From Reclinomonas americana ATCC 50394 (Eukaryota), in contig PS015173.1 of assembly GCA_048213135.1 (NCBI GenBank), positions 62,001 through 99,938 on the forward strand: 37,938 nucleotides of DNA, written 5' to 3'. This document shows positions 1 to 26,325 of the stretch, piece after piece. Both the position numbers and the translations under genes were made by a program. Position 1 is the stretch's first letter. Each line of letters opens with the position of its first letter. The notes under the pieces are model-generated. The model was not told where the DNA came from. It searched no databases and was given only the letters and a program-made list of their open reading frames with translations.

Positions 1-3000
1 GTTCCAGAACGCCATTGATCTCCAGCGCCGCATGCGCAATCTCAATGGCGAGCAGTGCGTGGTATTCCTCGACGAAGCCGGTCAGTTGTGCCGTACCCTA
101 CCCCCCGATGTCCAAGTTCTTGCTGAGTTGCCTTCATTGTTGTTTCAGGTCTGCCGTCACAGCGCAAGCAGGCACTGAAGGTCACCCATGCCTATCTGGA
201 CCATCCGGTCGTGTCTTCTGTGTTTTTGTCCAACACGACACTCGACGCAGCGTGAGTAATTGTGTACGCCCGCTGTCTCTTTTGTGGTGCTCTCGTTCTC
301 AACAGTTTTGACATTACAGCAAGACGAATCGCATGATCCAAGTGCTGCGCCCGCTCTCGTCGGAGGCCGAACTACGCGAGCTCGCGCACGGCTTCCTCAC
401 CGACAATTCACCGCAGGCAGCCACTCCGTACCTCGAGGCGCTTGCGGAGGGGCTGTGCAGGGGATTCAAGCGTGTGGTTGAGTTTGCCGATAACCTCTTC
501 CACATGCGCGATTTCGTGTACTTTTTGCGGTATCTGCGACGAGCCGCCTCTCGTGACGGCGCTCTGGGCGATCAGGTGCGAGTGTGCATTTGCTTGCGGT
601 GAGAGTGCTGCCCCGCTGTGCCCAAGAATGGCTCTTGTACTGCGCAGTTTGTCGTGTCGGTCGAACACTTTGTGGCCGGCGTGTATCGCAACTTTGGTGG
701 CATTCCGTCTCACCGATTGCGCCAGGTGCTCCTTTTTTTGTTGTGCGCACGTGATCGTTTCAGTGGCATTGGTGGCTCACCGAGTCGTGTGTAACATTGG
801 CCAGCTGTGTGACATGTTTGTTGACGAGGTGAACCGTGCAATCGTGGAAAGGTTCGACCCTCCTCCTGAGCACATGCTGCTGCTGATCGACGAGCGGCGT
901 ATGCAAGACTTCTCGGTGGTCAACGCCCTGCGTGGCAGCCTGGAGGAAAGGCTGAAGGAGGACGAGGACCCGAATCAGGTGTGCAATGTGATGCGCACGC
1001 GTGTGTGTGTGCGCCGTTGACGACTGACGATGTGTGTTGCTCGTGTTCGTCCACGTAGGCCCCGTTCCGCTACACCCTGCTTATCGACCCGACCGAGTCG
1101 CAGCTGTCGGTGCAGCTGCTGTACGACCTCAAGAGTGCGTATAAAACTGAAACCGTAGCTATCGAGTGTGTACTGACCAGGCGAATCTCTCTCTCTCTCT
1201 CTCTTTTGTCAGTTGTGGATCCTGATCGCACGGTGGTGCGATGTGTCACTGCGGATTTCGAGCGTGATGACGACCAGCTTGTCAATCGGCCTTTGGTTCT
1301 TGCTCGCATTGTCGACGCCATGCTCAAGGGTCAGACGGTGGTTCTCATCAACGTTGCGTCTCTCTCTCTCCTGCTGGTCGTCTTGTGGCTTCCTGGATTG
1401 CCAACGAGTCTCGAAACAATCACACAGGGTGCGACCATCTTTACATCGTTGTACGATGTCTTCAATCGGCACTTCATGTGCGTCAAGGGCCAGTACTATG
1501 GTGTGTCACCAACAGTGCGCAATGTCTTAGTTGTTGATATTTACCTCCTTTGTTCCTCGCAGCCAATGTGGCCATCGGAGCCATGTCGCGCTACGTTGTC
1601 GGTGAATATCACTCTTGTCTGTCCCTTAGACTTCTTCGTGTTGTCCACTACTGACACTGTCCGTTGGGTGGCTAGTGCATCGCGATTTCCGTGTCATTGT
1701 CCACTTGCCACTCAAGTCGTTGCCTACTACGCCGCTGCCGTTCTTGAATCGGTGTGTAGCCATGCCCTGTTTTTGTGTGAGTGCAAACTTGCGTGCGCTA
1801 ACTCTCGCCACCTCGTCAGCTTTGAGAAATTCGTTCTTGGTGCCACCGACGGTTTGTAATGCAAGAGGCACCATCCGCGATGTTTGATTCTGATGAAAGC
1901 TTCCATTTGATACATCACTTAGTGCTGGACGAGATGCTGCTTGATCCACGAGTCGCACGCATCCCGACCGTGGACGGTGGATCGGCGCCGCTGTTGCGCG
2001 CAGTGTCTGAAGGATGCCATGTTGCGTGTGACATTAGTTGGTTTTCGTGTGGTGCGGAGAGCTGACTTGCGCGGGTGTGACGCACAGGAATTCGTACGCC
2101 AGGTTGATCCTACCGCATTCTTTGGCCTGCATGCTGCAGAGACGGTTGCCGCTCTCTTCATCAGCGTCGCTCGTCAGAGCGCTGGCGGACTGCCGCTAGT
2201 GACTCCTCCGTTTGCCATGCCCCCTCTCAGCCGGCAGGCAGCTGCGCTGGCCGCTGCCAGTCGCTCAGATCTCGATCCCGATCAGTTGCAGACTCTCATC
2301 CGCCTCGCCAATTTCCACCTGTTGCAATTGGTGCGACCGGAGACGCTGTACAGCCTTCGGCACCGGCTGCCGGTGGTGTACTTGTCGGAGGTTGGTAATC
2401 CATCCTATGTGCATCTGCTAGTCAGAAGACGACACATGCTTATTCACTCCCCTCACTCTTCTTGGCGTGCAGTACCTGGTCACACAGGAGCACCTCTCAG
2501 TGTACGCACTGCTGTCGCAAGTGCTGCGACTGCGACTGGCTCCCAATGGCGCTGCGGAGGCTCGTGATCGGACGCCATCCAAGTGGGTGATTTACACTCG
2601 CTCGTCGTACGAGCTGGCGCAGTTGCATCAGCGCCCATCGCTGCTGCGAGTGCTCCTGGCGCCGGTGCAAATGGAGCCCGGGCAGGATATCGCCGATGTG
2701 GCGCAGGTTTGTTTTGGCTTCGTCTCAAACTATGCATGTGCCACGTGCATGCTTGCTCAAGTGTTGTGATGCACAGATTTCCGTACTCGGTTCCTTCATG
2801 TCGCAAGAGGACTGCGCAGCCTCGGTGCGCGATTTCTTTGCCAGCCGTCGACGCCTGCTGTTGGTGACAGCGGACATGTTGCGTAGATCACGCACTCGCT
2901 TCGGTCGAGAGAGATGATGCATTCTGAAAAGCATTTATTATTCCTCTGCTGCAGGTCGGTCGTGTCCACTCGCCAAGTCAACTTTTGGCGCTTCCAAGTC

Positions 3001-6000
3001 GACGAGCAACTGCGCCAACTGGCCGGTGCTGCTGCCGAGGGCGAGAGAGCGCCGGTCGTGGTCCTCATTCAGCATTTGCCACCGGAGCTCGTCTCCAACC
3101 AGTTCGGTGCGTGCTCACTGGACGCCACACCACTGATCAACAACTGGACGTATACGTACGTGGACTCGCTCGGTAGGTTGAATTTGTTTGTTCAAAGCGC
3201 TGCGTTGAAGTATTCGTGTCTCATGTGACTATCAAGGCTTGTCGACTGGATCTGCACATGACGACGCAATCGTCGCCGCTGATGCGCAGGGTGCTGATGG
3301 CGAGCAGCCGGCCGCAGTCATGGGCGCAGTTCACGCACGTCAGTGGATGGCTGTGGCATTCGGCCTGACGCAGCGAGCGGTATGTTTGTGGTTGGTGTTG
3401 TTTGACTCGGCTCTGTTGTGTGTACTGATGCGCTGCAATGGTCTCTGCAGGCCGCCGATGACGGACAACTGGGCGAATTCGACAGCCTCTTTGAGTCCTC
3501 GCTTAATGCCGTCTTCAACGTCTGCAATGTCACTGCCGTGCGGCTTCCGCAGTCACTTGTTCTCCGCCATGCGTCGGCGTTTTACAAGGCGCCTATGCCG
3601 ACTGCAGCCATTCCTCCGGCAACTCGACTGGCCGTGTTCCGCAAGGTACGTCTAAGGGACCACTCTTCGACAGCAGAGATGTTGATGTATTGATTGCTTG
3701 TTGCGTAGGTTCTGGAAAAGCACCCGCAGCTCAAGGAGGATGTCGTGCAGCGCTTCGTGAGCATGTGGAACTTGATGATGCTATCGCGCATTGTGGACTC
3801 GAGCTGCAAGGTCCTTACCTGCTTCCTTGATTTCTCTCCGATTTCGTCGCATCTGCTGTGCTAACTTGCTGGTGACTGCCGCTACTGCAGAGCATCTTGC
3901 GCGGCGACATTGTGCGGTCGTTGCTGGATGTCATCCTGTCGAGCATGCAGGAGATGATGCAGGGTCAGCTGTCCAACATTGTTCGGGCCTTCTGCGAGCA
4001 TCTGTCTTTGGAAAGCGTACTTCGCGTGCTGTTTGACGACGATGCCAACTTGGCGGTGCATGCCGAGTGGCTCACAGTGTGCATTCGCTCCCTCGAATCG
4101 TCACGTCCGACCGGCTCCGGCAGCGGCACTGGTGCATTGACATGCTCAGTGCCAATGGGCAAGGACCTCATCGCTGAGCCGCCCCGACTGCCACTATACG
4201 ATGTTGCGTGTCCATCTGTGTTTGTACAACGCACACTTAAGCCTTGTGAGAGGTGGCCAGCTCAAGTGGTGTTATTTTTCTCTTCGTTGAACACAGTACC
4301 TCGCGTCTCGCATGCGTACTCTGGTGCGACGAGCTGTTCGACGTGTTCCGGAGCGTCGCGACGATCCCGAGGCTCTTGCCGAGCAGCTCGACTTGCTGCT
4401 CCGCAAGAGCACTGTGGCCCCGCTGTGCGCTACGATCGAGCAACGCGACTGTTGCGTGCGTTCTTCGCAATTCATGCAGATTAAGTCATGCGGAGCTCAC
4501 CCGACACTCCTCCTTGCTTCACATGCAGTGCTGTGGAACAACTGCCTGTACGACTTCCTCACTCGTAGTCTGGGTCTGCCACTTCGCGGCTTGCCTGAGC
4601 GCCTGTTCAATGTGTTTGCGAACCTGCTGGAGCTCCTCGACTCGCGCCGTGGCAAGATGTGCTCCATGTTCGTCTCGCTGCATCTGCAACGACCGCTATT
4701 CGCATTCGCTTTTGCGTCACTCCGACCACTGTTGGAGATCGCGCCGGGCGAGTGCGTGCAGCTGTTTGCGGATCTGGAGCGCGCAGGCACTGTGGAGGAG
4801 TTCCGACGGACACTCGTTGGTCGCGATGTGGGAGTGCTGTTCAATGCCGTCGTCGACATTGCTCACGGCCACGCCGCCGATGCCGACTTGCAGAAGCGCA
4901 TGACGGCGCTGGAAAGCACGCTACTCTTCTACTTTAGTCGAGTCGGCAGTCGTGAAAAGCTGCTGCCGATGGTGGCTGACGCGCACGAACGCGCCAAAAT
5001 TGACGTGCTTACGGTTCGCTTGGACGTCCTCGGTCAATGCGATCACTGTTCCCAAGCATGGTTCTGACCACATGCTTGCTTGACGTGTTTCAGGTTGTAC
5101 ATCTGTGGCTCCATCAGCTGCAGTTCGGCAACGAGTCTGCAGAGGTGCTGATTCGAGATCTGTCGCGCATTATCGACGACGTCGAGCGTGCGGTGCGCGA
5201 GGCTCGTCTGGTAAGCTGTTACATCTGAATCATTCCGTCCGTCTGCGGTTGTCTCACTAACACGTGTCGCAAAAGCCCTTCGGAGGCGTGATGGAACTCG
5301 TGCGGCAGCTGATTCGCGCCGAGTATGACCGCCGTCATGGAGTGATTGATGGACAAGTGGTGGCTGGATTCCTCTTCGAAGTCCTGCAAACATTTGTGTC
5401 TGCACCGTTGTTGGAGGCAGGTGTGCGCGAGGACCCGGCCGTCCAGGCTCAGTGGCTCGACGGTCAGGCCAGTGCAATGAGACTGCTGAATCCGGAGCAG
5501 GCCGATCACTCTCGCTTCGTGCGTAATCAGGAGCGCACTTGTCGCCGCTCACGCCGCTGTCGCCTTCTCAATCATGGTTTTGTGTGTATAGTTCTTCAAC
5601 GAGTTGCCGCGCGATCTGCGCGCTCAGATGCTGCTGAAGATCGTCCGCGAGGCACTCTCGTCGCCCCATCACGAGGCCAAGGAACAGCTCTTCAGCGCCA
5701 TGAGCGACGAGATTCGCATGGGTATCGCCAGCCCGGAGCAAGGCGCAGCTGCAGGTGCTGCCGCGCCTGCCTTTGTTCCGTTGGATCTCTGTGCGGCGGA
5801 CGTACTGGCAGATGCGGCGTTTGTGTCGCGCTTCGACGTACTGTGCTACGAGGTCAGCTGTTCTGCCTCTTGCTGCCTTTTTGTAATGCGCACACTTACC
5901 GATTCCGCTTCGTGCAACAGGTGTTTGCAGAGTACATTCGTGGGTTCACCGTGCGCGACTGCGTGCAGTACATTCTCTCGATTGAGCAGCAAGTACTGCG

Positions 6001-9000
6001 CGACCCAGGCGCCAAGGTGCACTACAATACCGTACGCGTTCAACATGGCAGTAGCAGTTGAGTCTCACCCGCTGTTTCTCTCTGTCTCTCGCTTGCGTGT
6101 TTCACAGTTGTCTGGTGACGTGTTCGGGGCCGCACTTCGTGTCCAACTCTTGCGAACATTTGCCTCGACGCTCGGCAGCGATCCACGACCACCCATCGAA
6201 GTTGCGTCGTGCGATGAGTTGAACTCTCTCTCCGTGCTGCGTTGTGTTGCTCATGGTGATCGCCAGTTGCTACGAGATGTGAATGTGGTCGGCGATGTCG
6301 CTACCGCCGAACGCCTGTTGCGCCAGGCGCTGGCTTCCGGCCAACCGGCTCAGTTGTTCTTCTTCGGCTCCATTCCGGTGCGACTCCTTGCGTGTGTCTT
6401 CGATTGGTTTTAAGCATGGTCTTTACGCGGCTTTCGCTTGTCACATGCATATGCAGACACAAGACCGGCTGGTGACCGTGCTGCGTTCGCGTGAGTTCCT
6501 CGACGCGCTGGGCATGGTGCAAAACTGGTTCGTCGATTCGGAAGTTGGCGCCGCCTCGTCGCACCAGATGCCATTCATGCTCGATCCGACGCACCCACAC
6601 CATGTGGTCTTCACGGCTCTCCGCACTGCGATTGCCAACAATAACCCTCAAGTTTGTGCACTCGACTAGCTGCCTACTTCAATGGAGCCACACACTCATT
6701 TGTCGCACAATGTTCTTTTCTTGCAGGCGGTGGTGCAGCTCGTGACAGAGCGAGTGAATCAGGCCGGTGGCGACGCTTCAGCGATCCTGGAAACGCGCCA
6801 CGTGCTTCGCATGTGCGTGTTGGCCATCGCGTACCACGACTACTTCTGCCGCTGCCGCGAGAGTGCTTGCCTCGTCACACTGCTGGACGACGCCGCCTAC
6901 CAGGGCGTTCGAGATGCGCTGCTGCTGGATTCGCACGCGGGTTCGGCGGGTCGTGAGCGTCGCATGTTCCGCTTCTTCTCGGTTATGCCGCCCGACGTTC
7001 CTGATCGCTACGCCAACGCATTCGCGTACATTTTTTCGCTCCAGTTGTGTTTCCTCTGTCTCCCATGCCACTTCTCGGCACAGTGGTTAACGCACTTGCT
7101 TACCGTTGCAGTGCTGTGCAAAACGATCCGGCCCTTGCGATCAAGCGCCACTTCTTGTTTAACTTGCTGCTCACCGCTGTCAGCCTGCCGCACGATAGGA
7201 GCCATTTGTACCCACGCATCTTCTGTCCGACGGTGAGATCGTCGCTGCGGCGTTGACTGCCGTCGTTTTCGCTTCTCACAGTGGTGGTTTGACTGACTTG
7301 CAGGAAATTGACGGTGCCAGCGAAATCGGCATTGGCTCTGCTGACTGTCACCGCAAGATTTGGGACTGCGGCTACCAGTATGACGTGCAGACTGGTTTGC
7401 AGCAAGGTCATACGTTTGACGGCAACACGCTGCACCGGTTGACCATGAACGCCATTACCTGTGCGTTTGCTTATTGCATGTGCACCATCGTCGGGGGAGA
7501 CTGACAAGTAGAATGCGCATCCTTGCAGGGGGCTCCACTGCCATGTGCTTCCTCATCGACCCGGAGGTTCACGCGGAAAATATTCGAGCCGGCCGGTATG
7601 TGTGTGTGCATCATTTTTTTGCGTAATGCACGACAGATTACTGACAGAATGTTCATCGGTAGGCCATACCATTACTTGAGTTGAGTTGCATCGTGCTGCC
7701 GCGCCATGTGCGACCGAGCTCACGAATTGCTCCTTTTCTTTATCGTGGCATTTGCAGACGCCTACGGAGATTTTGCACGTGAGCGAGTCGATGGTATCGA
7801 GGTCCAGCGCAACCTGTCGCAGCAAATCGCCATCTACGCCTGGACGAAACCTTCAGTGTTCTTTGATGAAGTCTCTGCGCACGGTCTGCATCTCCTATGC
7901 TGGCGCTGTTGTCTTTTGCGGTGCTGCTGACATGGCGCTTTGTGTCTGGTAGCTGCGGTCACCGATGTGTCGTTCTACATGACGCAGGCGTTGGATCTGT
8001 GGCGAACAGAGGCGTGGCGAGCGATTCGTGCTGGCGGCGCTGATGTTCTGCGTGCGCATTTTACGACAGAGCCGCAAGGTGAGTGGCTGGATCGTGTATG
8101 TGAAGTAAGAGGCGACGCGAGAGCTTATTCGTGAAACCATCATGTAGCCAAGGGCTATGAGAATTCCTGGCGCGATTGGTCATTCGCGCATTTGGTGGGC
8201 GCCGACTATGTGGCACTGAAGGCGCCGTACGAGGGCGCAGCCCGCCGTGCGGCCGAGCCCGTCGACCGTGCGTTGGAGTGGCATAACAGGAACATTGCAA
8301 ATGTGGGCCTCCATCGACTGCGCTTCCCATCCGTTGACTCATTCCGCGATGCGCTTGGTACGTGATGTCATCAAGAAGGCGATGTCGTGTGAAGTAATGG
8401 CCTCATGCTCACCATCGTGTGCCGGTTTGCAGGAGCGCAACGACCCGCGCTTGTGTACAAGTTCTTTGGCAAACGGCGCCATTTGTCCATGTTGCAGCAC
8501 ATTCCGCTGTTGGTGCACTTCTACAATGCGATCCACCAGCTGGTGGACCACCGTTGCGTTGGGCGCTGCTCTGCTGCTTCTCTCATCGCGTTGACTGTGG
8601 GTCACAGGCCTCACCGAGGAGCAAGCCTGCTCCTTGACTGTGCGTACCGTCATTGCTGAGCTCGAAGAGCGCGCCGACATGCGTCGCGAGTTGCTGGAGC
8701 TGTGGAACCAATTCCGAGCGGCCACGACGGAGATTGCGGAGGTGTTTGCTCTGCTACCTGGTTGCGGAGAAGACGACGATGGTGGCGATGAAGACGGCGG
8801 CGCCGACGATGGGGCACACCGCGGGCAGGCCGACGCAGCTGCGCGGGCAATCCCACTCATTGACGACGAGACGCCGTTGATGGTGCTCTTATCGGTTTGT
8901 CGACAGTTTGCTGGCTTGCTTACTGTTGTAATATCACCGCGTGGGTTGATATTGACTGGACGTTCTCTGCTTGTACATGTAGTGGGCCGACGAAAACATG

Positions 9001-12000
9001 CATGATGCAATCTTGCAGATTGTGGAGATGCTAGTTCGCTTGCAGAACTCGATGCTCCGATCGGCGCACGACGCGCTTCCGCAGCTGGGTGTGACACGCG
9101 TGTCGGATGTGGCCCATCTTCATCTGATTGACGTCCACAAGGACTTCACGATGCAGCAGTCGCTGTTGACTGGCGACCTGGATAATTCATTGCAGGCGTA
9201 CGGTGTCACCTGTGTGAGTGTGGCGGATGATGGGCAGCTGGTGGTGGACTGGCCTCGCCTCAGTCGATATGTGCGTATATCTGTCCCTTTCTCACTATGA
9301 TACGCGTGCTGACTGTGTGTACTTGCAAATGATGCAGCTCGTGTATCGCCATGTTCTTGGTCGCGCGTCAATCGTCAGCAGCAGAGATTCTACTGGTGGT
9401 GTGCGGCGAGTGTGGGAGCCCAAGACTCAACAGGTGCAGGCCGCGCACGCCGGTGCTGCGGTTGCTGCCGAGGGTGCAGATGCTCAGTCGGGTGGCGACG
9501 GTGCCATGAGTGCACTGGTCGAGTTACTCCCCCGAGTGACTGACCAGTTGTGTCCACCACTTGAGGGGCGCCAGGAGGACGAGTTGCAGAGAATGTTTGG
9601 CCGCGCAACTAGCGTGCAGCTGTCACAGGTGGCAGAGCAGCTGGTCAGTGTCCTCCGCAGTTGCCTGGCCGAGCGGCTGTTCTTGGACCGCCATTCGCGT
9701 CTGGTTTGTATTCGTGTGATCCACCGCAGCTGTGCAGGAGAAGTCCACTAATTGGCGAGCAGACGATTGAGGATGTGTGCAACGAGTACTGCGGAGTCCC
9801 TGTCACCGGCTTCCTCACGCATGCGTGCGGCCGCCCGATCAAACATTTGCGCAGTCTGTGCAACGTGGTGGTCGAACTGTTCGCCGACATGGCGGAACTC
9901 GGCGAGCAAGCGGCTGGAGGGAACTTGTTTGGCGGCGCTGGTCAACAGCTCGATCGCCCATTCTCCCTTCAGTGTCGAGTTTCGTTTTTCACGAGCTGCC
10001 CATGGGCGTGTTATCTCGCAGCTGACATGTGAATCTTGCAAGACTGCGCTGGACGCAGCACGACAGCGCATTCTAATCTCCAGCGACAGCATGGAGGCGC
10101 GGCGTACTGTGGCGTTCTTGCAACGTGTCAGTCAGGCGCTGCGCGAAGAATTCATTGTGGAGGCACTGCAAATGCAGCCACAGATGTCTCTTTGCGAGGC
10201 TCTGGGACAGGAGTTGGATCGGGAAGCGCACGGCGACATGATTGATGTCTGGCTGCCTGCATCGCTGCTTGCCGAGCACTATTCAACGTACTTGCGCTTC
10301 CTGCGCAAGGTTATCGGTGTTTTGTCCCTGCGCTTCCTGCGTGCCAATACGCAGCAGTATGCCGAACATCCACCGCCGTGGTGCGTCCCGGATCGTCCTC
10401 TGCAGCAGATGGCATTCCTGTCCGAGGAGGAGCCTCCGACGCCCGCAAATTCCGAGGCAAGCTCTGCTGATCGCCGCCGCCCTCGCCACGAAAGCGGCGA
10501 CCTCGGCGTGGACGAAGATGCGGTGGAGGACGATGTGGAGATGGTTGAATTCCCCACGGCCTTCAACCGCGGTGGCCGAGGTGGCGGCGGGCAGCAGCCG
10601 GCTGGTGCACAGGACTTCTTCCTGCATCAGGCACGCCGCATGCACTTGCTGCAGAGTTTGCAAGATGCCGTGGCTGTGGGAGACATCGAGGTTTGCGACA
10701 CTGGTGCTATCTCGTGTGCTGCTGCTGAAGCTGATGTTAACGACTGCATCAGTCCATGTTCACCGTTCTTCGAGAGGATGTGACTCTGCTCGAGATGCGC
10801 AACTCAGACGGCCTCGGTTTGTTGCACCTGGCCGCCTGGCACAATCAAGCCGACCTATTCCATGTGCTGGTTGAGCAAGTGCAAATGGACCCGTGGATGA
10901 GAAATGCCGACGGAATGACAGCGTTGCACTTTGCGTTGCGTACTGCCACTCTCATCCTTGTCCTTCTCCTTGGCCACTGCTGCTCACAAGAGAAAAATCT
11001 GAAAACAGGTGCTTCCGCAACGCCCAGGCTGTCATCGGAGCTCTTGCTGACATGGGTCCTCTCGACTTCACCATTGAGACCGAGGACAAGAGAACGCCGC
11101 TTTCGCTTGCGGAGGAGGGTGGTCACGTTGAACTGGTTGGCAAGATTCAAGCCGTGCTCCATGGGTGCGCCTGTCATGTATTTGTTCTCCTCGCCGTTGC
11201 ACAATGGTCATCACAACTGACTCTACTGCATGACCGGTGCAGCGACCCTGCGCCGTCAGACGATCCAGTGGAGCTTATGCCCATCGGCGTTGCTACATTG
11301 GATGTGGTGTGGTCCCTGCTTGCAGAAGGCGTCGGCGCGTCGCCGTTGCCGGCAGATTCTGCAGTTGGAGATGACGTCCAGTACCTGCAAAGTGCCGTGT
11401 TGGCGCTGGGACTGCAGCCGCGATCCACGCAGAGTATGTCTGTGATCGAGGTCGTGCCGAGTGCGCTGGGAGACGAGAGCGGAAGCTCGTGGCGCTGCGA
11501 TGCGGCGGCTGAGTGGAGCATGAGTGCAGAGGGCACCATCGCCGGTCACCCTGTGGACTTTACGGCTTTGGCGGAGGAGATTGTCGCCGGCCGAGTCGAC
11601 TCGTCTCGTGATCTGGCCGCTCTGTGGGCTCTGTTGGTGGCCCAGCCGCCTTCGGCGGATGTTGCACGGCCTTCATGGGTTGTGCTTGTCACCTCCAGTC
11701 GTCGCGTTCCTGCCGCATTGTTCCGAGTGGGTCCAGATCTGGCGGAGGCCAGCCAACTGGCCGCCTTCGAAGCCGACCCTCCTAAGTCTGCTGACGAGTG
11801 CTTGTTTGTGGGCCTGCTTATGTCCAGTCGGGAATTCTTTGCTCTGGAGGTCGCGGATGAAGGGCTGCTGCAGGCTGCTCTTCTGCAGCGGTGGCAACCG
11901 CCACCGGTTGATACCGCGGCCACAGATCAACAGTCGGCATTGATGGAACCGAGAGAGCTTGTGGCACAGTTTCGCGCACTTGTCCTTGTCTTCTTGCTCG

Positions 12001-14237
12001 TCTATTGTTAGAAAGAACTGACGGTATTGAGTGTTGCAGCTGTGTACTGAGCACTCCGCTCTCGCTCGTCGGTGTGCTGCCAACAGAGGGCGTGGCCGAT
12101 GTTCCTGTCGACCAAACTACGGCGGCGGCGGCGGCAATTGAGCACGCCGTTACTCAATTTGGCCTATCCATCGTCTCAGGTCACGGCTCTTTGCTACATG
12201 CACTGTGCGCTCCTCAGCCGCCAGAGTCCGCTGGGCCCTCTGCGGAGGTCAGTATTATGGGTGCATGCTGCGTGTTGTTGAAGTTTTCCCCCCTTCTCAA
12301 TCAAGTCGCTGTCGAGTGCAGATCATGACGGCAGAGGCGGCGGCGGATTGCATCGGCGAGTGGACTTTGCTGAGCGAGAGCACCGCCGTTCTGCCAGTCA
12401 GCCCGTTCTTTGATATCGACAAGCCAGATGGCGTTCAAGTCTCACACGTGTTGCAGCAACTCGGTACGGTCGTCGACGACTTTTGCCCGACTTCACTGCT
12501 GCGCTCCGATGCTGCGTTGGCGTGGGTCGCGGCGCAACGGCTGGCAGTCAACCTCTTGATGCTGGTGTTCTGCACCGATGGTCGCTTGATGTGTGTCCGA
12601 TTCAATGCTGGCGAGGTGGAGCTGGTGGGCGAGGATGCGCCGGCCCGTTTGATCCCGCTGGCATACATTGAGGCGGACCGCGTCTTCTGCCGCCTTTGTG
12701 GTGACTACCATTGTGTTAACAAGCTTCTTTTCCGCTGTGAATGATCTTGTCGCTCACTGCACGTGCACGGCAGACGACGGGACGGAGCGCATGTCTCGTG
12801 TGCTAGCTGCTTTGTTTGGTGAGGCGGAAACAGGTGGTGTGTCACTCGTTGATCCTACTCATGTTGGTATTGTTCGATGGCTACACGTACACAGGCACTG
12901 AAGACGAGGAACAAACGGAGGTCGTGCCTGTTGCTGCTGCTCTGGAGGAGATGGATCAATCGGTGGCAGTCGACGTACTTTTGTGGCGGTTGCGTCACAA
13001 TTCGGTGCAGATCATGTGGGGTGGAGTGGGTGTCCCAGGCGTGTCGTACGTGGTGTACCTTGGAGACGAGATGATTGGAGGTGAGTGTCAATGTATGCTC
13101 GCCACATTCGTCGCTGCAGATAGGGTGGCTCATTGTGTGCGCACGTGCAGAGACCGACCGACATCAAGTGCCGTTTAGTTTGCCCACAGAGCGCCTGCAT
13201 TCAGGCGCTGAGCTGGCGATTATTGTGCGAGTGCGTTGTGGAGACACGCTGTGGGCGCCGTCGCCTGTGCTTCGCACTGTTGTTCCGAGTGCGTGACCGC
13301 TATGTATATATTATGTAGATGTGCAGCCTGTGCACTTCCACTCAACGCGACATGCACAGATCCGCCTCCGTGGACCTCGGAACGCCAAGAGGAGCTGGAG
13401 CGCAGTGCCAACCTGGTGCTGAAATTGCGCTGCAAGCCTTCTGTGAAACCGCGTTCGAAGAAGCAAGCAGAACCACTGTTGGCCAAGGTGCGCTCTTGCT
13501 CTGCAGGAGATTTCTTTGTGTTGACGTGTGTGCCTCATCCACGCATACTGCAGGCCGCAAGCAGTGAGTGTGGAGCGTATCGTCTGTTGGACGGTTACTT
13601 TGAGTTTGTGTGGGTACGTTTTGGCATACCACCAGCGAATCACGTCGTGAACTTCATCTAACATCGTTCGGCAGTCACACGCGACAAATGGCATCTCGGA
13701 GCCGGTGCCGGAAGAGTACCACACGTCGACTGCGGCCGCGCTGGCTGAGATTGCATACACTCTCACGCTTCCTGGACTGGACTGTTGCGTTGAGCTGCTC
13801 GCAGTTTGTCGCACTTGCCAGCTCCACTCAATCGTGTTTTTTGTGTCCCTCCCCCGACACCGCCAGGTGCTCATGATGTGGTGCGTTGGGTCTTGGCTGC
13901 CGACGACGTTAGCTGGACAGAGATTGTGCAACTGCAAGCTGGTGAGACGGTCGGGGCCATGGCGACGGCGATTGCGGAAATCCTGATTTCCATTCGCGAG
14001 ACCGCGCCTGGTGCGTCCGCCCTTCGGCAGAGTTTAAGCCTGCACAATGTCTTCCACTAACTCACTCTTGCAGGAGGATCGTGGGTCACCAACGCTCCCG
14101 AATTCGTGCGCGGAACGTGGTCGACGCTGCGCGACAAATGTGTCGCCCATGCCGGCGATGAGATGCACGATACTCTTCTCGAGCTGTGCGACTTTGTGTT
14201 GAGTCTGGTGCCACCACCACCACCACCACCACAGTAA
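1..14237 (+). CDS. RNF213: RNF213/mysterin-like giant AAA+ ATPase / E3-like protein, 5'-truncated by the window edge, dozens of exons, with a C-terminal ANK + tandem domain + FN3-like extension
   Basis: Spliced exons (2-80, 149-251, 320-575, ...) read CVVFLDEAGL..LKVTHAYLD..VFLSNTTLDAAKTNR, FHMRDFVYFL, YRNFGG, RYTLLID, AMLKGQTVVLINGATIFTSLYDVFNRHF..GQYYANVAIG..VHRDFRVIV..PLPFLNRFEKFVL. These are colinear with recalled RNF213 AAA4-AAA5 motifs (VVLDEVGL, ISNWALDPAKMNR, LRDYYSL, RNFSG, LYESLYDALNQYY, VHPNFRLIV, PIPLINRLEKHYL). The junctions I checked join in phase through to a last exon at 14074-14237 ending PPPPPPPQ-TAA. Not every internal junction was verified. The symbol means 'like', not proven orthology. 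Confidence 0.85.
10650..11160 (+). other. Ankyrin-repeat domain (about 3-4 repeats) within the RNF213-like gene
   Basis: Spliced translation LQDAVAVGDIE..RNSDGLGLLHLAAWHNQADLFHVLV..RNADGMTALHFACFRNAQAVIGALAD..EDKRTPLSLAEEGGHVELV matches the ANK consensus G-TPLHxA..G..xV. Confidence 0.85.
12960..13290 (+). other. Fibronectin type III-like domain within the RNF213-like gene
   Basis: The pattern HNSVQIMW...SYVVYL...LHSGAELAIIVRVRC...W.PSPVLRTVVP resembles the FN3 signature (SxxxxW, Y-x-V, L-x-P-G-x-x-Y-x-V-x-V). Confidence 0.5.
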
Positions 14238-16603: not shown

Positions 16604-19600
16604 TCAGTTGTGCTTGCGACGACTCTTCTTGCTCTTGTTTCCGTGGCTGCAGCGGGCCGTGATCTGACGGACCAGCTTCTCCGCTTGCTTCGCCTGTCGC
16701 TCGTCGCGCTTGGCCAGACGGCGTTGGTGGATCGACTTGGCGTCACGAACCGACTTCTTGGCTTGCTCCAGCGCCCGCTTGGCGGCAGCAACGGCCTTGC
16801 GGACTTCGGCGTTGGCTCGCTGGAGAGCGTTCTGGCTCGCCGCCGTCTCCTGCGTGTGTGAGAAAACAAGAGAGCGAGTGAGTGACAAGGGATGATATGC
16901 GTTGTGGGTTCGCTCCACGAACCTGCTTCACGCGTCGCTTCCACGTTGGCGACACGCATTCGCACTGCTGTTGATACCGCCTCCGGAGGGCCTTGATTTT
17001 GTTGACGAGCAGCTGGCATGGCCGGCTCTGCTGCGTGGAACTTGCTTCCGCCAAGGACAGCAACGGTAGCGATCCCGAATCGCCGTCTGGTGGCGTACCA
17101 TCGGCGTGCAGAACACCATCGGCAGGAGGAGCGCCAACGGCAGGCGGAGCACCATCGACAGGCGGAGCGCTAACATCGGCAGGAGGAGTGCCATCGGCAG
17201 GAGGAGCGCTAACATCGGCAGGAGGAGTGCCATCGGCAGGCGTGCCATCGGCAGGCGGAGCACCATCGGCGGGCAGAGCGCTAACATCGGCAGGAGGAGT
17301 ACCATCGGCAGGAGCGCCATCGGCAGGCGGAGCGCCATCGGCAGGCGGAGCGCCATCAGCAGGCCAGGCAGCATCGCCACCGGCAGGAGGAGCGCCATCG
17401 GCAGGCGGGGCACCATCGGCAGGAGGAGCGCCATCGGCAGGAGGAGCACCATCGGCAGGAGGAGCGCCATCGGCAGGCGGAGCGACATCCGCAGGCGGAG
17501 CGCCATCGGCAGGAGGAGCACCATCGGCAGGCCAGGCAGCATCGCCACCGGCAGGAGGAGCGCCATCGGCAGGAGGAGCACCATCGGCGGGCGGAGCGCT
17601 AACATCGGCNNNNNNNNNNNNNNNNNNNNNNNNNNNNNNNNNNNNNNNNNNNNNNNNNNNNNNNNNNNNNNNNNNNNNNNNNNNNNNNNNNNNNNNNNNN
17701 NNNNNNNNNNNNNNNNNNNNNNNNNNNNNNNNNNNNNNNNNNNNNNNNNNNNNNNNNNNNNNNNNNNNNNNNNNNNNNNNNNNNNNNNNNNNNNNNNNNN
17801 NNNNNNNNNNNNNNNNNNNNNNNNNNNNNNNNNNNNNNNNNNNNNNNNNNNNNNNNNNNNNNNNNNNNNNNNNNNNNNNNNNNNNNNNNNNNNNNNNNNN
17901 NNNNNNNNNNNNNNNNNNNNNNNNNNNNNNNNNNNNNNNNNNNNNNNNNNNNNNNNNNNNNNNNNNNNNNNNNNNNNNNNNNNNNNNNNNNNNNNNNNNN
18001 NNNNNNNNNNNNNNNNNNNNNNNNNNNNNNNNNNNNNNNNNNNNNNNNNNNNNNNNNNNNNNNNNNNNNNNNNNNNNNNNNNNNNNNNNNNNNNNNNNNN
18101 NNNNNNNNNNNNNNNNNNNNNNNNNNNNNNNNNNNNNNNNNNNNNNNNNNNNNNNNNNNNNNNNNNNNNNNNNNNNNNNNNNNNNNNNNNNNNNNNNNNN
18201 NNNNNNNNNNNNNNNNNNNNNNNNNNNNNNNNNNNNNNNNNNNNNNNNNNNNNNNNNNNNNNNNNNNNNNNNNNNNNNNNNNNNNNNNNNNNNNNNNNNN
18301 NNNNNNNNNNNNNNNNNNNNNNNNNNNNNNNNNNNNNNNNNNNNNNNNNNNNNNNNNNNNNNNNNNNNNNNNNNNNNNNNNNNNNNNNNNGGCCTTCGGC
18401 TTCTCCGTCGGCTTCGGCTTCGGCTTCTCCGTCGGCTTCGGCTTCTCCGTTGGCTTGGGCTTCTCCGTCGGCTTGGGCTTCTCAGTCGGCTTGGGCTTCT
18501 CAGTCGGCTTGGGCTTCGGCTTCTCCGCCGGCTTCGGCTTCGGCTTCTCCGCCGGCTTCGGCTTCGGCTTCTCCGCCGGCTTCGGCTTCGGCTTCTCCGT
18601 CGGCTTGGGCTTCTCAGTCGGCTTGGCCTTCGGCTTCTCCGTTGGCTTCGGTTTGGGCTGCTCCGTCGGCTTGGGCTTCGGCTGCTCAGTTGGCTTCGGC
18701 TTCGGCTTCTCCGTCGGCTTCGGCTTGGGCTTCTCCGTCGGCTTGGGCTTGGGCTTCTCCGCCGGCTTGGGCTTCTCCGTCGGCTTGGGCTTGGGCTGCT
18801 CAGTCGGCTTGGGCTTGGGCTTCTCCGCCGGCTTCGGCTTGGGCTGCTCAGTCGGCTTGGGCTTGGGCTTCTCCGTCGGCTTCGGCTTCGGCTTCTCCGT
18901 CGGCTTCGGCTTGGGCTTCTCCGTCGGCTTGGGCTTGGGCTTCTCCGCCGGCTTGGGCTTCGGCTTCTCCGCCGGCTTGGGCTTCTCCGCCGGCTTGGGC
19001 TTCTCCGTCGGCTTGGGCTTGGGCTTCTCCGCCGGCTTCGGCTTGGGCTGCTCAGTCGGCTTGGGCTTGGGCTTCTCCGCCGGCTTGGGCTTGGGCTTCT
19101 CCGCCGGCTTCGGCTTGGGCTGCTCAGTCGGCTTGGGCTTCGGCTTCTCCGTCGGCTTCGGCTTCGGCTTTTCCGTCGGCTTCGGCGGCTGTGCTGGCTT
19201 CGGCGGCTGTGCTGGCTTCGGCGGCTGTGCTGGCTTCGGCGGCTGTGCTGGCTTCGGCGGCTGCGCTGGCTTCGGCGGCTGCGCTGGCTTCGGCGGCTGC
19301 GCTGGCTTCGGCGGNNNNNNNNNNNNNNNNNNNNNNNNNNNNNNNNNNNNNNNNNNNNNNNNNNNNNNNNNNNNNNNNNNNNNNNNNNNNNNNNNNNNNN
19401 NNNNNNNNNNNNNNNNNNNNNNNNNNNNNNNNNNNNNNNNNNNNNNNNNNNNNNNNNNNNNNNNNNNNNNNNNNNNNNNNNNNNNNNNNNNNNNNNNNNN
19501 NNNNNNNNNNNNNNNNNNNNNNNNNNNNNNNNNNNNNNNNNNNNNNNNNNNNNNNNNNNNNNNNNNNNNNNNNNNNNNNNNNNNNNNNNNNNNNNNNNNN

Positions 19601-20983
19601 NNNNNNGCCATCGGCACGAGGAGCTGCCATCGGCAGGCAGGCAGCGATCGCAGGCGGAGCGCCATCGGCAGGAGGAGCGCCATCGGCAGGCGGAGCGCCA
19701 TCGGCAGGCGGAGCGACATCGGCAGGCGGAGCGCCATCGGCAGGCGGAGCGCCATCGGCAGGCGGAGCGCCATCGGCAGGCGGAGCGCCATCGGCAGGCG
19801 GAGCGCCATCGGCAGGCGGAGCGCCATCAGGAGACCAAACAGCACCGGCGGGCGGAGCGCCATCGGCAGGCGGAGCGCCATCGGCAGGCCAGGCGGCATC
19901 GCCACCGGCAGGAGGAGCAACGTCGGTAGGCGGGGCACCTTTAGGAGTCCAAGCAGCATCGGCAGGCGGAGCGCCATCGGCAGGAGGAGCGCGATCGGCA
20001 GGTGGCACTCGCCCATGCGGCTGCGCCGGCTTATACGGCTGCGCTGGCTTCGGCTTCCCCTTCGGCTTCGGCTTCTCCGTCGGCTTCGGCTTCGGCTTCT
20101 CCGTCGACTTGGGCTTCGGCTTCTCCGTCGGCTTCGGCTTGGGCTTCTCAGTCGGCTTCTCCGTTGGCTTGGGCTTCTCAGTCGGCTTGGGCTTCGGCTT
20201 CTCCGTCGGCTTGGGCTTCTCAGTCGGCTTGGGCTTCGGCTTCTCCGTCGGCTTGGGCTTCGGCTTCTCCGTCGGNNNNNNNNNNNNNNNNNNNNNNNNN
20301 NNNNNNNNNNNNNNNNNNNNNNNNNNNNNNNNNNNNNNNNNNNNNNNNNNNNNNNNNNNNNNNNNNNNNNNNNNNNNNNNNNNNNNNNNNNNNNNNNNNN
20401 NNNNNNNNNNNNNNNNNNNNNNNNNNNNNNGCTGGCTTCGGCGGTGGTGGCGGTACTGCCCTCGGAGGTGGAGGTGGTGGCGGCGGTGCCCTCGGAGGTG
20501 GTGGTGGCGCTGGCCTCGGTGGTGGTGGTGGCGGCGCTGCCCTCGGAGGTGGAGGTGGTGGCGGCGGTGGTGGCGGCGCTGCCCTCGGTGGTGGAGGTGG
20601 TGGTGGCGCTGGCCTCGGTGGTGGTGGTGGTGGAGGCGGCGCTGGCTTCGGCGGTGGTGGTGGTGCTGCTCTCGGAGGTGGAGGTGGTGGCCTCCTTGCT
20701 GGCCCACCAGTTGCTGCTGCAAGACTGATCACAGCTGCATCTTCCTTGTTCTCGCCGTCGAACAAGTGCCCATAGTCAGACTGCAAGAGGCTCCACTGGC
20801 CTTCTTGCTCATCGTTGAAGATGACGTCAACGGTGTCGCTCTCGAAGGCTGTGTGGCAATACATGGATTGGCGGTGGGGCTGTGAGGTAATGTGTTGTTG
20901 CTTGACTCACCATGCGCTTGCAGAGCCAGAACTGTCACGCCCAATGCCGCGACAAGGAGGAGAAGCAAGAGAGGGTATCTCAT
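16604..20983 (-). CDS. Secreted proline-rich repeat protein (extensin/mucin-like) with a basic coiled-coil C-terminus; spans 3 gaps
   Basis: ATG 20983 gives the signal peptide [25 protein letters not shown]. After intron 20849-20910 come an acidic N-domain, poly-Pro, and [14 protein letters not shown] and PPADGA arrays. After intron ~16850-16922 the last exon is [38 protein letters not shown]. Continuity across the N-gaps is inferred. Confidence 0.72.
17115..17609. repeat. 18-bp tandem array (ggcggagcgccatcggca-like; PPADGA on the - strand)
   Basis: Directly visible; runs into the gap at 17610-18390. Confidence 0.95.
18391..19314. repeat. 18/24-bp tandem array (PTEKPK[PK]) followed by an 18-bp array (PPKPAQ)
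   Basis: ggcttcggcttctccgtc-type units at 18391-~19180; ggcttcggcggctgtgct units at ~19180-19314. Confidence 0.95.
19607..20275. repeat. Second PPADGA array (~19607-20000) and second PTEKPKPK array (~20060-20275)
   Basis: Same units as the other arrays, directly visible. Confidence 0.93.
20431..20692. repeat. GGT/GGC/GGA-rich repeat encoding [12 protein letters not shown] poly-proline blocks (- strand)
   Basis: Directly visible. Confidence 0.92.
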
Positions 20984-21030
20984 GCTGGAAAGCTCTTGGC
21001 CTTCTCTCGCACCAAATCGCTTTGAGATGA

Positions 21031-21605
21031 ATTCATAAGTTGAGATTCGAGCGGGAAGTAACGGTGGGTATACAAAAACGGCTACACAAGACGATTTCAG
21101 CGAAGAAGTTGTCGGTATGGTGAAAATGAAAAAAAAAAGGCTTTTTGCATCTGATGAACTTGAGTCTCGGCGTGAAAACAAAGAAAATCCAAGAGGAATT
21201 GCCGATAAAAGCTGGCATGCGCAGCTGCAGCACCGAAATCAGAAAATCGGGATCCTGACCGTGGCTTTCAGGGTGCAACATTGCTCCACCGACCTACTTC
21301 AGTGCATGGGTTACGCCAGGTCCGAAAACACGTGGCCCTAACCACGCAGGTCCGGAACTGCTTGGTCCAGAACTGCTTCCGATTCGAATTCGAATGCTGC
21401 GTAGCGTGTTTCCGTTTTTTCCATTCTCGAGTTGCATCTAAGCGCAGCCCCGTGCCTTATGGACATCGCATGCGCAAGCGTTCTGTTCATGCAGCCATCA
21501 TGGAAAAGCGTACCTGGCACGGCATGCAGTACACAGCCGCAAAAAAACACTGTAAATCCGACGAATCAACAAAAAAACCACTTCAACTAACTCTTATCTT
21601 ACGCA
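21031..21605. promoter_or_regulatory. Putative bidirectional promoter region between divergent genes
   Basis: More AT-rich with A-runs, lying between ATG 20983 (-) and ATG 21606 (+). Positional inference only. Confidence 0.4.
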
Positions 21606-21698
21606 ATGGCTTCGTGGCTGTTCGACAAGCTGCGGGGTGAGTGTTCCCTCCCTCCACCTCTCCTCCCTCCCCTTCCGTCTCTCTCCCCCTTCTCCCTC

Positions 21699-21760
<62 letters not shown>

Positions 21761-22880
21761 NNNNNNNNNNNNNNNNNNNNNNNNNNNNNNNNNNNNNNNN
21801 NNNNNNNNNNNNNNNNNNNNNNNNNNNNNNNNNNNNNNNNNNNNNNNNNNNNNNNNNNNNNNNNNNNNNNNNNNNNNNNNNNNNNNNNNNNNNNNNNNNN
21901 NNNNNNNNNNNNNNNNNNNNNNNNNNNNNNNNNNNNNNNNNNNNNNNNNNNNNNNNNNNNNNNNNNNNNNNNNNNNNNNNNNNNNNNNNNNNNNNNNNNN
22001 NNNNNNNNNNNNNNNNNNNNNNNNNNNNNNNNNNNNNNNNNNNNNNNNNNNNNNNNNNNNNNNNNNNNNNNNNNNNNNNNNNNNNNNNNNNNNNNNNNNN
22101 NNNNNNNNNNNNNNNNNNNNNNNNNNNNNNNNNNNNNNNNNNNNNNNNNNNNNNNNNNNNNNNNNNNNNNNNNNNNNNNNNNNNNNNNNNNNNNNNNNNN
22201 NNNNNNNNNNNNNNNNNNNNNNNNNNNNNNNNNNNNNNNNNNNNNNNNNNNNNNNNNNNNNNNNNNNNNNNNNNNNNNNNNNNNNNNNNNNNNNNNNNNN
22301 NNNNNNNNNNNNNNNNNNNNNNNNNNNNNNNNNNNNNNNNNNNNNNNNNNNNNNNNNNNNNNNNNNNNNNNNNNNNNNNNNNNNNNNNNNNNNNNNNNNN
22401 NNNNNNNNNNNNNNNNNNNNNNNNNNNNNNNNNNNNNNNNNNNNNNNNNNNNNNNNNNNNNNNNNNNNNNNNNNNNNNNNNNNNNNNNNNNNNNNNNNNN
22501 NNNNNNNNNNNNNNNNNNATTCGTCGCCCACTGGAGGAATGCCGGCCGCTGGGCCGGTGGTGGTGACGACCACGGCGTCCGTCATTTTGGCGCAGCACAT
22601 CAAGGCGCGCTCTGCGGCAGCCGCGGCGGCCGCAGCGGAAGCAGCTGCAGCACCCGCTGGCGACTCGCCATCATCGCCGCCTGCGGCGGTCACGCCGGAA
22701 GAGGCTGCCGACGCAGAGAGCGACGATGATGCAGAATTCTCCGGCTTCGTGTCGGCATCACCGACCGCGTCTCCCCCGCCGGCACCGTCGCCACCCGCAG
22801 CAGCGCAAGAAGCCGCAGCGGCCGATGGCGCCGCATCCACACCCGTGGCTGCTGACACAAAACCGCACGAGGAACAATGA
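21606..22880 (+). CDS. Hypothetical protein; middle hidden in the gap at 21761-22518; Ala/Pro/acidic low-complexity C-terminus
   Basis: MASWLFDKLRG is followed by a gtgagt donor and a pyrimidine/CA-rich intron. After the gap an open frame ..ESDDDAEFSGFVSA..KPHEEQ* is followed by AT-rich 3' sequence. Confidence 0.55.
21704..21760. repeat. (CA)n microsatellite, intronic, abutting a gap
   Basis: Directly visible. Confidence 0.98.
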
Positions 22881-22963
22881 AACTCTAATGATTGTTTGTT
22901 GGTATTATGTATGCTACGTGCAAAACAACAACACTTTTTTTCATTCTTTTCTTTGTTTCTTCC

Positions 22964-24335
22964 TCACAGCATCGGTGACCGACTGACACTTGCCGCCGCC
23001 GTGGCCGTCTGCTGTCGCTGAATCTCCAGCGCAGCCTCGAGCTCCACCAAGGCCTCTCGCGCCTTGGCCACCTGCGCACGGATTGCGTCACTGGGCTTCT
23101 CCAGCGACGGAGCGACAAGCTGCGGCACGTTCTCGTCGAAGCGGCGAATGTAGGCGCGCAGGCACTCCATGCGCCTGCTCACGTCCTTCTCGGCCAGGAG
23201 GAACACCAAATCATTGGCCACCATGTGCCGAATGACGAGGCACGGATCGGCCGTGCGCAGCGGAAAGAACGACTCCGAGTGCANNNNNNNNNNNNNNNNN
23301 NNNNNNNNNNNNNNNNNNNNNNNNNNNNNNNNNNNNNNNNNNNNNNNNNNNNNNNNNNNNNNNNNNNNNNNNNNNNNNNNNNNNNNNNNNNNNNNNNNNN
23401 NNNNNNNNNNNNNNNNNNNNNNNNNNNNNNNNNNNNNNNNNNNNNNNNNNNNNNNNNNNNNNNNNNNNNNNNNNNNNNNNNNNNNNNNNNNNNNNNNNNN
23501 NNNNNNNNNNNNNNNNNNNNNNNNNNNNNNNNNNNNNNNNNNNNNNNNNNNNNNNNNNNNNNNNNNNNNNNNNNNNNNNNNNNNNNNNNNNNNNNNNNNN
23601 NNNNNNNNNNNNNNNNNNNNNNNNNNNNNNNNNNNNNNNNNNNNNNNNNNNNNNNNNNNNNNNNNNNNNNNNNNNNNNNNNNNNNNNNNNNNNNNNNNGC
23701 CCGGCCTGCGTGGTCCACGGATGAAACTCGCCCAGCATGAGCCCGCGCTCCACAAAGCGCGCCTTGAGCGCCTGCTGCGTCTCGTCAATCAACTCGGGCG
23801 TCGCACGCGGAAACACCGTAATCAGCGCCTTGAGCTGCACAAAATCGAACATCGACCCCCATGAGAACACTCTCTTATACTCTCTTGCTTGTGAGGGGGA
23901 GCAAGCGCGTCCACGCACCAGTGGTCTCGCACACGGCATCTCCTTCTCAAACAGATGCAGCGACTGCATCATCTCACGTCGCATCTGCTCCTCCAGCACT
24001 GATGCACCTCTGCTCTTCTCCAGCGCCACCACGCGCACGCGGATCGCATCCCGACGCATCGCGGCCGGCACAAACGGGCACACCACGCCCGCACGTCCCA
24101 ACGCCGGATGCTCCTTGGCCAGAAACTGCTCAGCAAACACCGCCACGCGCTGCAACACTCCATTCACATCATCATGATCTCCACTGACAGCACTCTCCTC
24201 GTGCAACCGCGGAGGACGTGCGCTCGTCACGTCCACGGAGAACACCGCCGCGCGCTTGTCAGTGACGAGTGCGCGGCATTCGGAGATGGACCAGCCCCAT
24301 GACGGAGATGAGGAAGTGGAGCGTGCGGCTGACAT
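22964..24335 (-). CDS. DUF6875-like protein (family recalled mainly from bacteria)
   Basis: Motifs FLAKEHPALGRAGVVCPFVPAAM, KALITVFP, QQALKARFVERGLMLGEFHP, G-LHSESFFPLR, LVIRHMVANDLVFL and AYIRRF match the recalled pattern HPxLGRxGxVCPF..GLMxGEFH..GLHN..FxPL..IRHMVxxD. Probable in-frame intron at ~23835-23918. The start codon is uncertain. Confidence 0.72.
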
Positions 24336-26303: not shown

Positions 26304-26325
26304 ACAAGCAATCATTATACTATCC

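Follow-up and report, generated by a model that had tools for sequence, protein, structure and literature searches.

A Cys-Gly motif in a giant AAA+ gene of Reclinomonas americana, probably incidental, compared with the RZ finger of RNF213 and ZNFX1

The RZ E3 centre, a recent discovery, ubiquitylates lipopolysaccharide and RNA. Its residues in human RNF213 are given as C4505, H4509, C4525, and C4528 for the metal ligands, C4516 for the proposed nucleophile, and H4537 for the general base, with H4509A and C4516S each abolishing pathogen ubiquitylation (PMC11549300). ZNFX1 has counterparts in C1849, H1853, C1869, and C1872 (ligands), C1860, and H1881; the report on it finds H1853 and C1860 both necessary, finds the same for a ubiquitin-binding helix ahead of the finger (I1835A), and says of the RZ domain that it dates back to choanoflagellates (10.1101/2025.10.14.682297). 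The spacing C-x3-H-x6-C-x8-C-x2-C-x8-H is identical in the two proteins (PMC11549300; 10.1101/2025.10.14.682297). RNF213 and ZNFX1 share nothing except this finger. For mouse RNF213, published limits place the AAA core at 1775-3405, the hinge at 3406-3588, and the E3 module at 3589-4926, with the RING at 3940-3999 (PMC7311170).

The DNA analysed here, referred to as the window, is a stretch of 37,938 nucleotides from Reclinomonas americana ATCC 50394. This eukaryotic DNA has a G+C content near 58% and is interrupted by five runs of N in the interval 17610-23698; neither Rfam families nor tRNA genes were found in it. A giant intron-rich gene is predicted on the plus strand at 2-14237, open at its 5' end where it meets the window edge; its frame runs open from that edge for 3,459 codons and is closed by a stop at 14237, the coding sequence being split into 54 exons by 53 introns and ending in a C-terminus that reads ..PPPPPPPPQ*. 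No paralogue of the gene was found inside the window. The model comes from our own dynamic-programming parse, which combines codon log-odds with GT..AG introns scored for donor, branch, and acceptor; the parser was run twice, with a crude third-position G+C score and then after retraining on its own exons, and the second pass is the model used throughout. The median length is 71 nt for introns (range 52-116) and 156 nt for exons. Of the 53 introns, 43 end in CAG, eight in TAG, and two in AAG, and 17 have a CTRAC branch motif close to the 3' end. A few details of the model are uncertain: the 11-nt exon at 7648-7658, the donor at 4460, which is weak, and the stretch 1213-1500, in which unspliced sequence may remain. 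The predicted protein has 61 Cys and 95 His among its 3,459 residues; Cys makes up 1.8%, and a stretch of 200 aa is expected from composition to hold three or four of them.

The beginning of the model appears to hold the end of an AAA+ unit. Read directly, three plus-strand exons at 2-575 carry a Walker-B-like motif, ..CVVFLDEAGL.., close to the window start, followed by ..VFLSN.. and ..AKTNRMIQVLRP.. and then by a lid-like helical stretch. About 330 residues further on, a second, degenerate AAA-like unit (1213-1851, plus strand) is likewise recognized by direct reading, as ..LYDVFNRHF..GQYY..HRDFRVIVHLPL..PLPFLNRFEKF. We take the two units, by eye, to resemble the midasin/dynein/RNF213 class. 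Of a dynein-like ring of six AAA units, at most the last two or three would fit in the window, and the others would lie upstream of base 1. In an Atlas feature search with exon 321-575, dynein AAA and AAA-lid clusters scored 0.89-0.91, below an unnamed top match at 0.96, and so provide a lead only. No Pfam AAA family matched the modelled exons, the AAA-like stretches included, and a phmmer search of PDB with 1215-1499 (E<=1) returned no chain of the midasin/dynein/RNF213 class. The host protein is, we infer, one of the AAA machines of the dynein/midasin/RNF213 class. Its kinship to RNF213 in particular is unproven, the only pointers being the Walker-B-like motif and the dynein-lid-like Atlas lead.

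Set against RNF213 as a whole, the host is alike in its giant size, in its Walker-B-like motif, in an order in which more than 2,000 residues, most of them helical, come after the AAA units, and, as a lead, in an AAA-lid-like exon that resembles dynein lids in the Atlas. It differs in having neither RING nor RZ finger, in about 1,000 additional C-terminal residues that include ankyrin repeats, and in that ten of its exon pieces have no pairwise match to any RNF213 chain in PDB. The ankyrin repeats, at 10741-11217 on the plus strand within the same modelled gene, match Pfam Ank_4 with an E-value of 4.3e-07, above the cut-off, and are the sole Pfam family to score above it in the gene.

A first-pass annotation of this DNA, made by eye, had seen no C3HC4-type RING between 3000 and 9000 and had proposed that a short motif, DCHRKIWDCG, stands in the position of the RZ finger. 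The first of these statements is borne out: the C3HC4 pattern, a cross-brace of the form C-x2-C ... C-x-H ... C-x2-C ... C-x2-C, occurs neither in the spliced model nor in any of the six frames of the window, no RING family matches in Pfam, and the observation that no RING is visible extends to the entire part of the gene inside the window. The annotation was also right that a canonical RZ finger is lacking here: the spliced model contains neither the strict nor the loose RZ pattern. Across the six frames of the whole window, the strict pattern does not occur, and the single match to the loose one, on the minus strand (33568-33666), falls far beyond the gene and in an apparently non-coding frame. 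The motif exon does not match even when the pattern is relaxed and reduced to its N-terminal half (Cys, two to five residues, His, four to nine residues, Cys-Gly). The model contains a single CxxC in its 3,459 aa, at aa 3122. Pfam searches of 31 stop-to-stop ORFs detected no RING, RZ, or AAA family. Nor did a search at E<=1 with 51 exons of the model, in which no family of any kind passed its cut-off, and hmmscan of the motif exon by itself against Pfam-A, which we take to include an RZ-type model, returned zero families at E<=1. Because all introns of the model are 116 nt or shorter, there is no space in them for a missed zinc-finger exon.

The DCHRKIWDCG peptide and its flanks are present exactly as first quoted. 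The motif occupies 7343-7372 on the plus strand (about aa 1737-1746 of the model), with WDCG at 7361-7372, and falls in a predicted small exon of 52 codons at 7304-7460 that encodes EIDGASEIGIGSADCHRKIWDCGYQYDVQTGLQQGHTFDGNTLHRLTMNAIT, including ..SADCHRKIWDCGYQYDVQTGLQQGH.. within it. The exon upstream of it (7112-7232, plus strand, from the ORF translation and the gene model) reads ..AIKRHFLFNLLLTAVSLPHDRSHLYPRIFCPT and ends ..HFLFNLLLTAVSLPHDRSHLYPRIFCPT, and is separated from the motif exon by a 71-nt intron at 7233-7303, GTGAGA..ACTGAC..TTGCAG. On the other side, a 68-nt intron at 7461-7528, GTGCGT..ACTGAC..CTTGCAG, leads to a modelled exon at 7529-7595 that encodes (W)GSTAMCFLIDPEVHAENIRAG, reading (W)GSTAMCFLIDPEVH.., and beyond it splicing is ambiguous at 7596-7757, where alternatives were worked out by hand. 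Both introns lie on the plus strand and are identified by sequence signals as well as by the model.

These surroundings bear on the question of whether the peptide is made as written. The motif exon could be mis-spliced, or the locus could be a decaying pseudogene; a home-made model, with some weak donors and an 11-nt exon close to the motif, invites such a suspicion, as does the fact that a neighbouring 236-aa piece has no relatives among 1.84 billion representative sequences. However, the signals for donor, branch, and acceptor are strong in both introns around the motif exon (GT..CTGAC..CAG), and the frame of the gene stays open through 54 exons and 14 kb. The motif-exon frame itself is stop-free and scores +13.6 in codon log-odds over its 52 codons, compared with -12.6 to +4.9 for the other five frames, a figure that is slightly circular since this exon was among those used to train the codon table. 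We regard an artefact of the gene model as highly improbable.

Residue by residue, the motif exon contains C1738, H1739, C1745, G1746, H1759, and H1767 in model numbering, spaced C-H-x5-C-G-x12-H-x7-H. As in the RZ finger of RNF213, an acidic residue precedes Cys-Gly, a Cys and a His lie a few residues upstream and a His lies downstream, and the Cys-Gly is part of a giant protein whose Walker-B-bearing AAA unit lies a long way N-terminal to it. The four zinc ligands (C-x3-H ... C-x2-C), by contrast, have no full set of equivalents, since the exon offers only C1738, H1739, and C1745, and the motif is without C-x2-C. The gap between the first Cys and the His is zero residues rather than three. 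The RZ nucleophile stands 11 positions past the first Cys (a gap of 10), whereas C1745-G1746 stands 7 positions past C1738 (a gap of six). The general-base His of the RZ finger is at nucleophile +21, after 20 intervening residues, while the His residues here are at +14 (H1759) and +22 (H1767) from C1745, after 13 or 21. In all, at most three of the six defining RZ residues are kept, each at a different spacing, the CxxC zinc knuckle is absent, and neither sequence searches nor Pfam supply a match. The motif's weak resemblance to the RZ finger of ZNFX1 equals that to the finger of RNF213, but the host shows neither the helicase nor the Miz domain of ZNFX1 in the window.

The proposal that DCHRKIWDCG is a minimal E3 loop replacing the RZ finger therefore fares unevenly: the part of it that concerns the missing RING and the missing canonical RZ finger stands, but the likeness of the loop to an RZ finger is limited by the few residues kept, the lack of CxxC, and the differing spacings. 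Developed fully, the proposal would place the host, which has no RING, on a deep branch of the RNF213 family and suppose that its zinc knuckle was lost while the first Cys/His, the nucleophile Cys-Gly, and the following His survived as a small loop, a zinc-free DCG stub that would keep the Cys able to accept ubiquitin from an E2. Points consistent with such a degenerate finger are the distance at which the motif follows the Walker-B-like motif, the presence of C, H, C-G, and H together in a span of 22-30 residues, and the placement of H1767, 22 residues past C1745 where RNF213 and ZNFX1 have 21 from nucleophile to base. Against it, there is no CxxC and all spacings differ, phmmer searches of PDB matched no RNF213 or ZNFX1 chain and Pfam matched nothing, and the host's own kinship to RNF213 is itself putative. 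Both known RZ fingers, moreover, need zinc coordination and the N-terminal ubiquitin-binding helix for activity according to the reports on them, and the inactivity of zinc-ligand mutants in RNF213 and ZNFX1 argues against a working zinc-free version. We consider a degenerate RZ finger very unlikely, and describe the idea as unsupported rather than refuted.

Some of the attraction of that idea lies in position, and we examined how readily such an arrangement arises by chance. For a protein of the model's length and composition, the tripeptide [DE]CG is expected 0.44 times and is observed twice, and it appears somewhere in 36% of 5,000 composition-matched shuffles. Within aa 1600-1800 it appears in 2.5% of the 5,000 shuffles, the interval having been chosen post hoc from the human spacing. 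When a second Cys no more than 13 aa upstream and a nearby His are demanded in addition, the share falls to 0.26%, for a pattern that is itself post hoc. These shuffle figures are not taken as a test, because interval and pattern were set after the motif had been seen, because many other Cys motifs in some 1,700 residues would have been accepted, and because, over such evolutionary distance, the lengths of domains shift by hundreds of residues. The claimed functional element is indistinguishable from chance.

Two observations from this comparison nevertheless run counter to an incidental reading. The DCG motif follows the Walker-B-like motif by about 1,725 aa, near the value for human RNF213, in which the distance from the Walker B of AAA4 to the RZ nucleophile C4516 is roughly 1,670 aa. 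The clustered C/H pattern around [DE]CG, post hoc as it is, is also found in only a small fraction of shuffles.

Homology searches were carried out exon by exon. Ten exon pieces were compared by phmmer with all PDB chains, the piece 1215-1499 at E<=1 and nine others at E<=10 (7304-7459, 6727-7044, 321-575, 2088-2390, 4297-5004, 2473-2706, 2956-3171, 8150-8356, and 8983-9270). Each piece drew between zero and four weak chance matches, and in all ten of these pairwise, exon-wise searches, whose power is low, RNF213 and ZNFX1 chains were absent. The first-pass annotation had reported that the flanks of the motif align by eye with the helices around the RNF213 RZ finger; this alignment could not be reproduced, in that neither the motif exon nor the exon just upstream found an RNF213 or ZNFX1 chain in PDB at E<=10. 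Similarity to RNF213 extending over the whole protein, across AAA core and E3 module, likewise did not emerge from exon-wise pairwise searches of this low power. When 4297-5004 (236 aa, of which about 23 residues are probably intronic) was compared by full HMMER with 1.84 billion representatives, no match reached E<=0.001; if RNF213 spacing were kept, this piece would lie just before the RING within the E3 module. Word-index searches with exon 6727-7044, exon 321-575, and the motif exon found nothing among proteins of up to 2,000 aa, a size limit that puts giant relatives out of reach. An Atlas search with exon 6727-7044 gave a recognition of 1889, under the useful level, and its output is treated as noise. 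That every homology test was made exon by exon, with low power, is a further consideration on the side opposed to an incidental reading.

A scan of metagenomes with the same exon, 6727-7044, yielded 229 pattern matches, one of which passed tblastn. The locus was rejected as a chance match: its GC content is 37%, the seed 8-mer lies in a non-coding frame, a single other weak HSP is collinear (E 0.08) with the remainder scattered, and the contig is unrelated, AT-rich, and animal-like. The ORFs around the match look to us like exons of a vertebrate-type checkpoint kinase together with a retroelement.

Structure prediction was made from single sequences. The AlphaFold2 model of the 52-residue motif exon has a mean pLDDT of 53.9, too low to be reliable or to be set beside the RZ fold, a beta-sandwich with a ubiquitin-binding helix ahead of it, and contains three weak strands (exon residues 21-27, 32-38, and 43-48). 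These low-confidence strands, where helices might have appeared, are compatible with a small beta-rich insert resembling an RZ remnant, a point on the side opposed to an incidental reading. Exon 4531-5004 (158 residues) was modelled as all helical with a pLDDT of 57.7; Foldseek found zero matches to this model in PDB at E<=0.001, with designed helical repeats at the top of its output, and the comparison is uninformative. Neither prediction has a bearing on whether the motif derives from an RZ finger.

The motif exon lies in a part of the protein that is rich in potential metal ligands, with three Cys and three His in the 40 aa from 1710 to 1749, the third-densest such stretch in the model. A small, novel structural metal site with no relation to RZ could be formed by C1721, C1738, H1739, C1745, and H1759, and would staple the loop. 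The density of the stretch is in keeping with such a site, but its spacing fits none of the known zinc-finger patterns scanned, Pfam offers no match, and the fold predicted for the exon is of low confidence; we think a metal site unlikely.

The account we favour, and think probable, is that DCHRKIWDCG is simply a lineage-specific part of a giant AAA+ protein, and that its Cys pair has no special role; we infer, that is, that the pair is incidental. The host would begin, within the window, with the tail of one AAA unit that has an intact Walker B, and a degenerate AAA unit would follow. About 3,000 mostly helical-looking residues would come next, with ankyrin repeats near the end and neither RING nor RZ finger. 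The motif exon may then be a short insert, probably loop- or strand-rich, between helical exons.

Were a zinc-free RZ remnant with a working Cys to exist here, it would tell which parts of the E3 centre are dispensable, the DCG stub would be the smallest form in which this transthiolating centre can work, and the centre would be dated to before animals. As things stand, the value of the comparison is that of a correction, the motif looking no different from an incidental pair of Cys. The result that is left is a giant AAA+ gene in which no RING or RZ finger occurs and for which no relatives could be detected; databases cover its organism poorly. The densest Cys/His cluster of the model is found not at the motif but further downstream, at 9763-9978 on the plus strand (..CNEYCG..THACGRPIKH..C); it lacks CxxC and matches no Pfam family, and it brings together four Cys and three His in 40 aa.

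The giant gene, the large intron-dense gene that opens the window, is at the level of its sequence an orphan. When a 236-residue coding stretch from it (4297-5004), of which about 23 residues are probably intronic, was compared with 1.84 billion protein representatives, nothing matched at E<=0.001. The source organism itself seems not to be represented in that collection.

Just 3' of the motif exon, the exon encoding the DCHRKIWDCG peptide, the region 7596-7757 can be spliced in two ways. It may be read as two introns flanking an 11-nt micro-exon (7648-7658), or as a single 154-nt intron with a GTGTGC donor at 7604; the choice is ambiguous, and the encoded proteins differ by only a few residues. 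Cys and His residues crowd together most densely in the giant protein at 9763-9978 (..CNEYCG..THACGRPIKH..C), some 590 residues C-terminal to the DCG motif, where a cluster holds 4 Cys and 3 His within 40 amino acids. This cluster includes no CxxC and has no Pfam match.

Ankyrin repeats (10741-11217; Pfam Ank_4, E 4.3e-07) fall within the giant gene as we modeled it, in a C-terminal extension of roughly 1,000 residues. The model, ankyrin part included, may describe one gene, or it may join two that closely abut.

Tandem repeats with units of 18 and 24 nt, in long arrays of up to about 30 copies interrupted by runs of N, and a (CA)31 microsatellite occupy 17116-20691 and 21698-21760, between the neighborhood of the giant gene and the genes that follow. 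Among the neighbors are a major-facilitator transporter on the forward strand (24615-26439; MFS_1, E 8e-33) and, on the reverse strand, a gene with a pro-kumamolisin activation domain (36312-36902; E 5e-29) and an adjoining unannotated ORF of 564 codons (34519-36210). Each is a long, unbroken reading frame, whereas the giant gene is interrupted by introns about every 160 nt.
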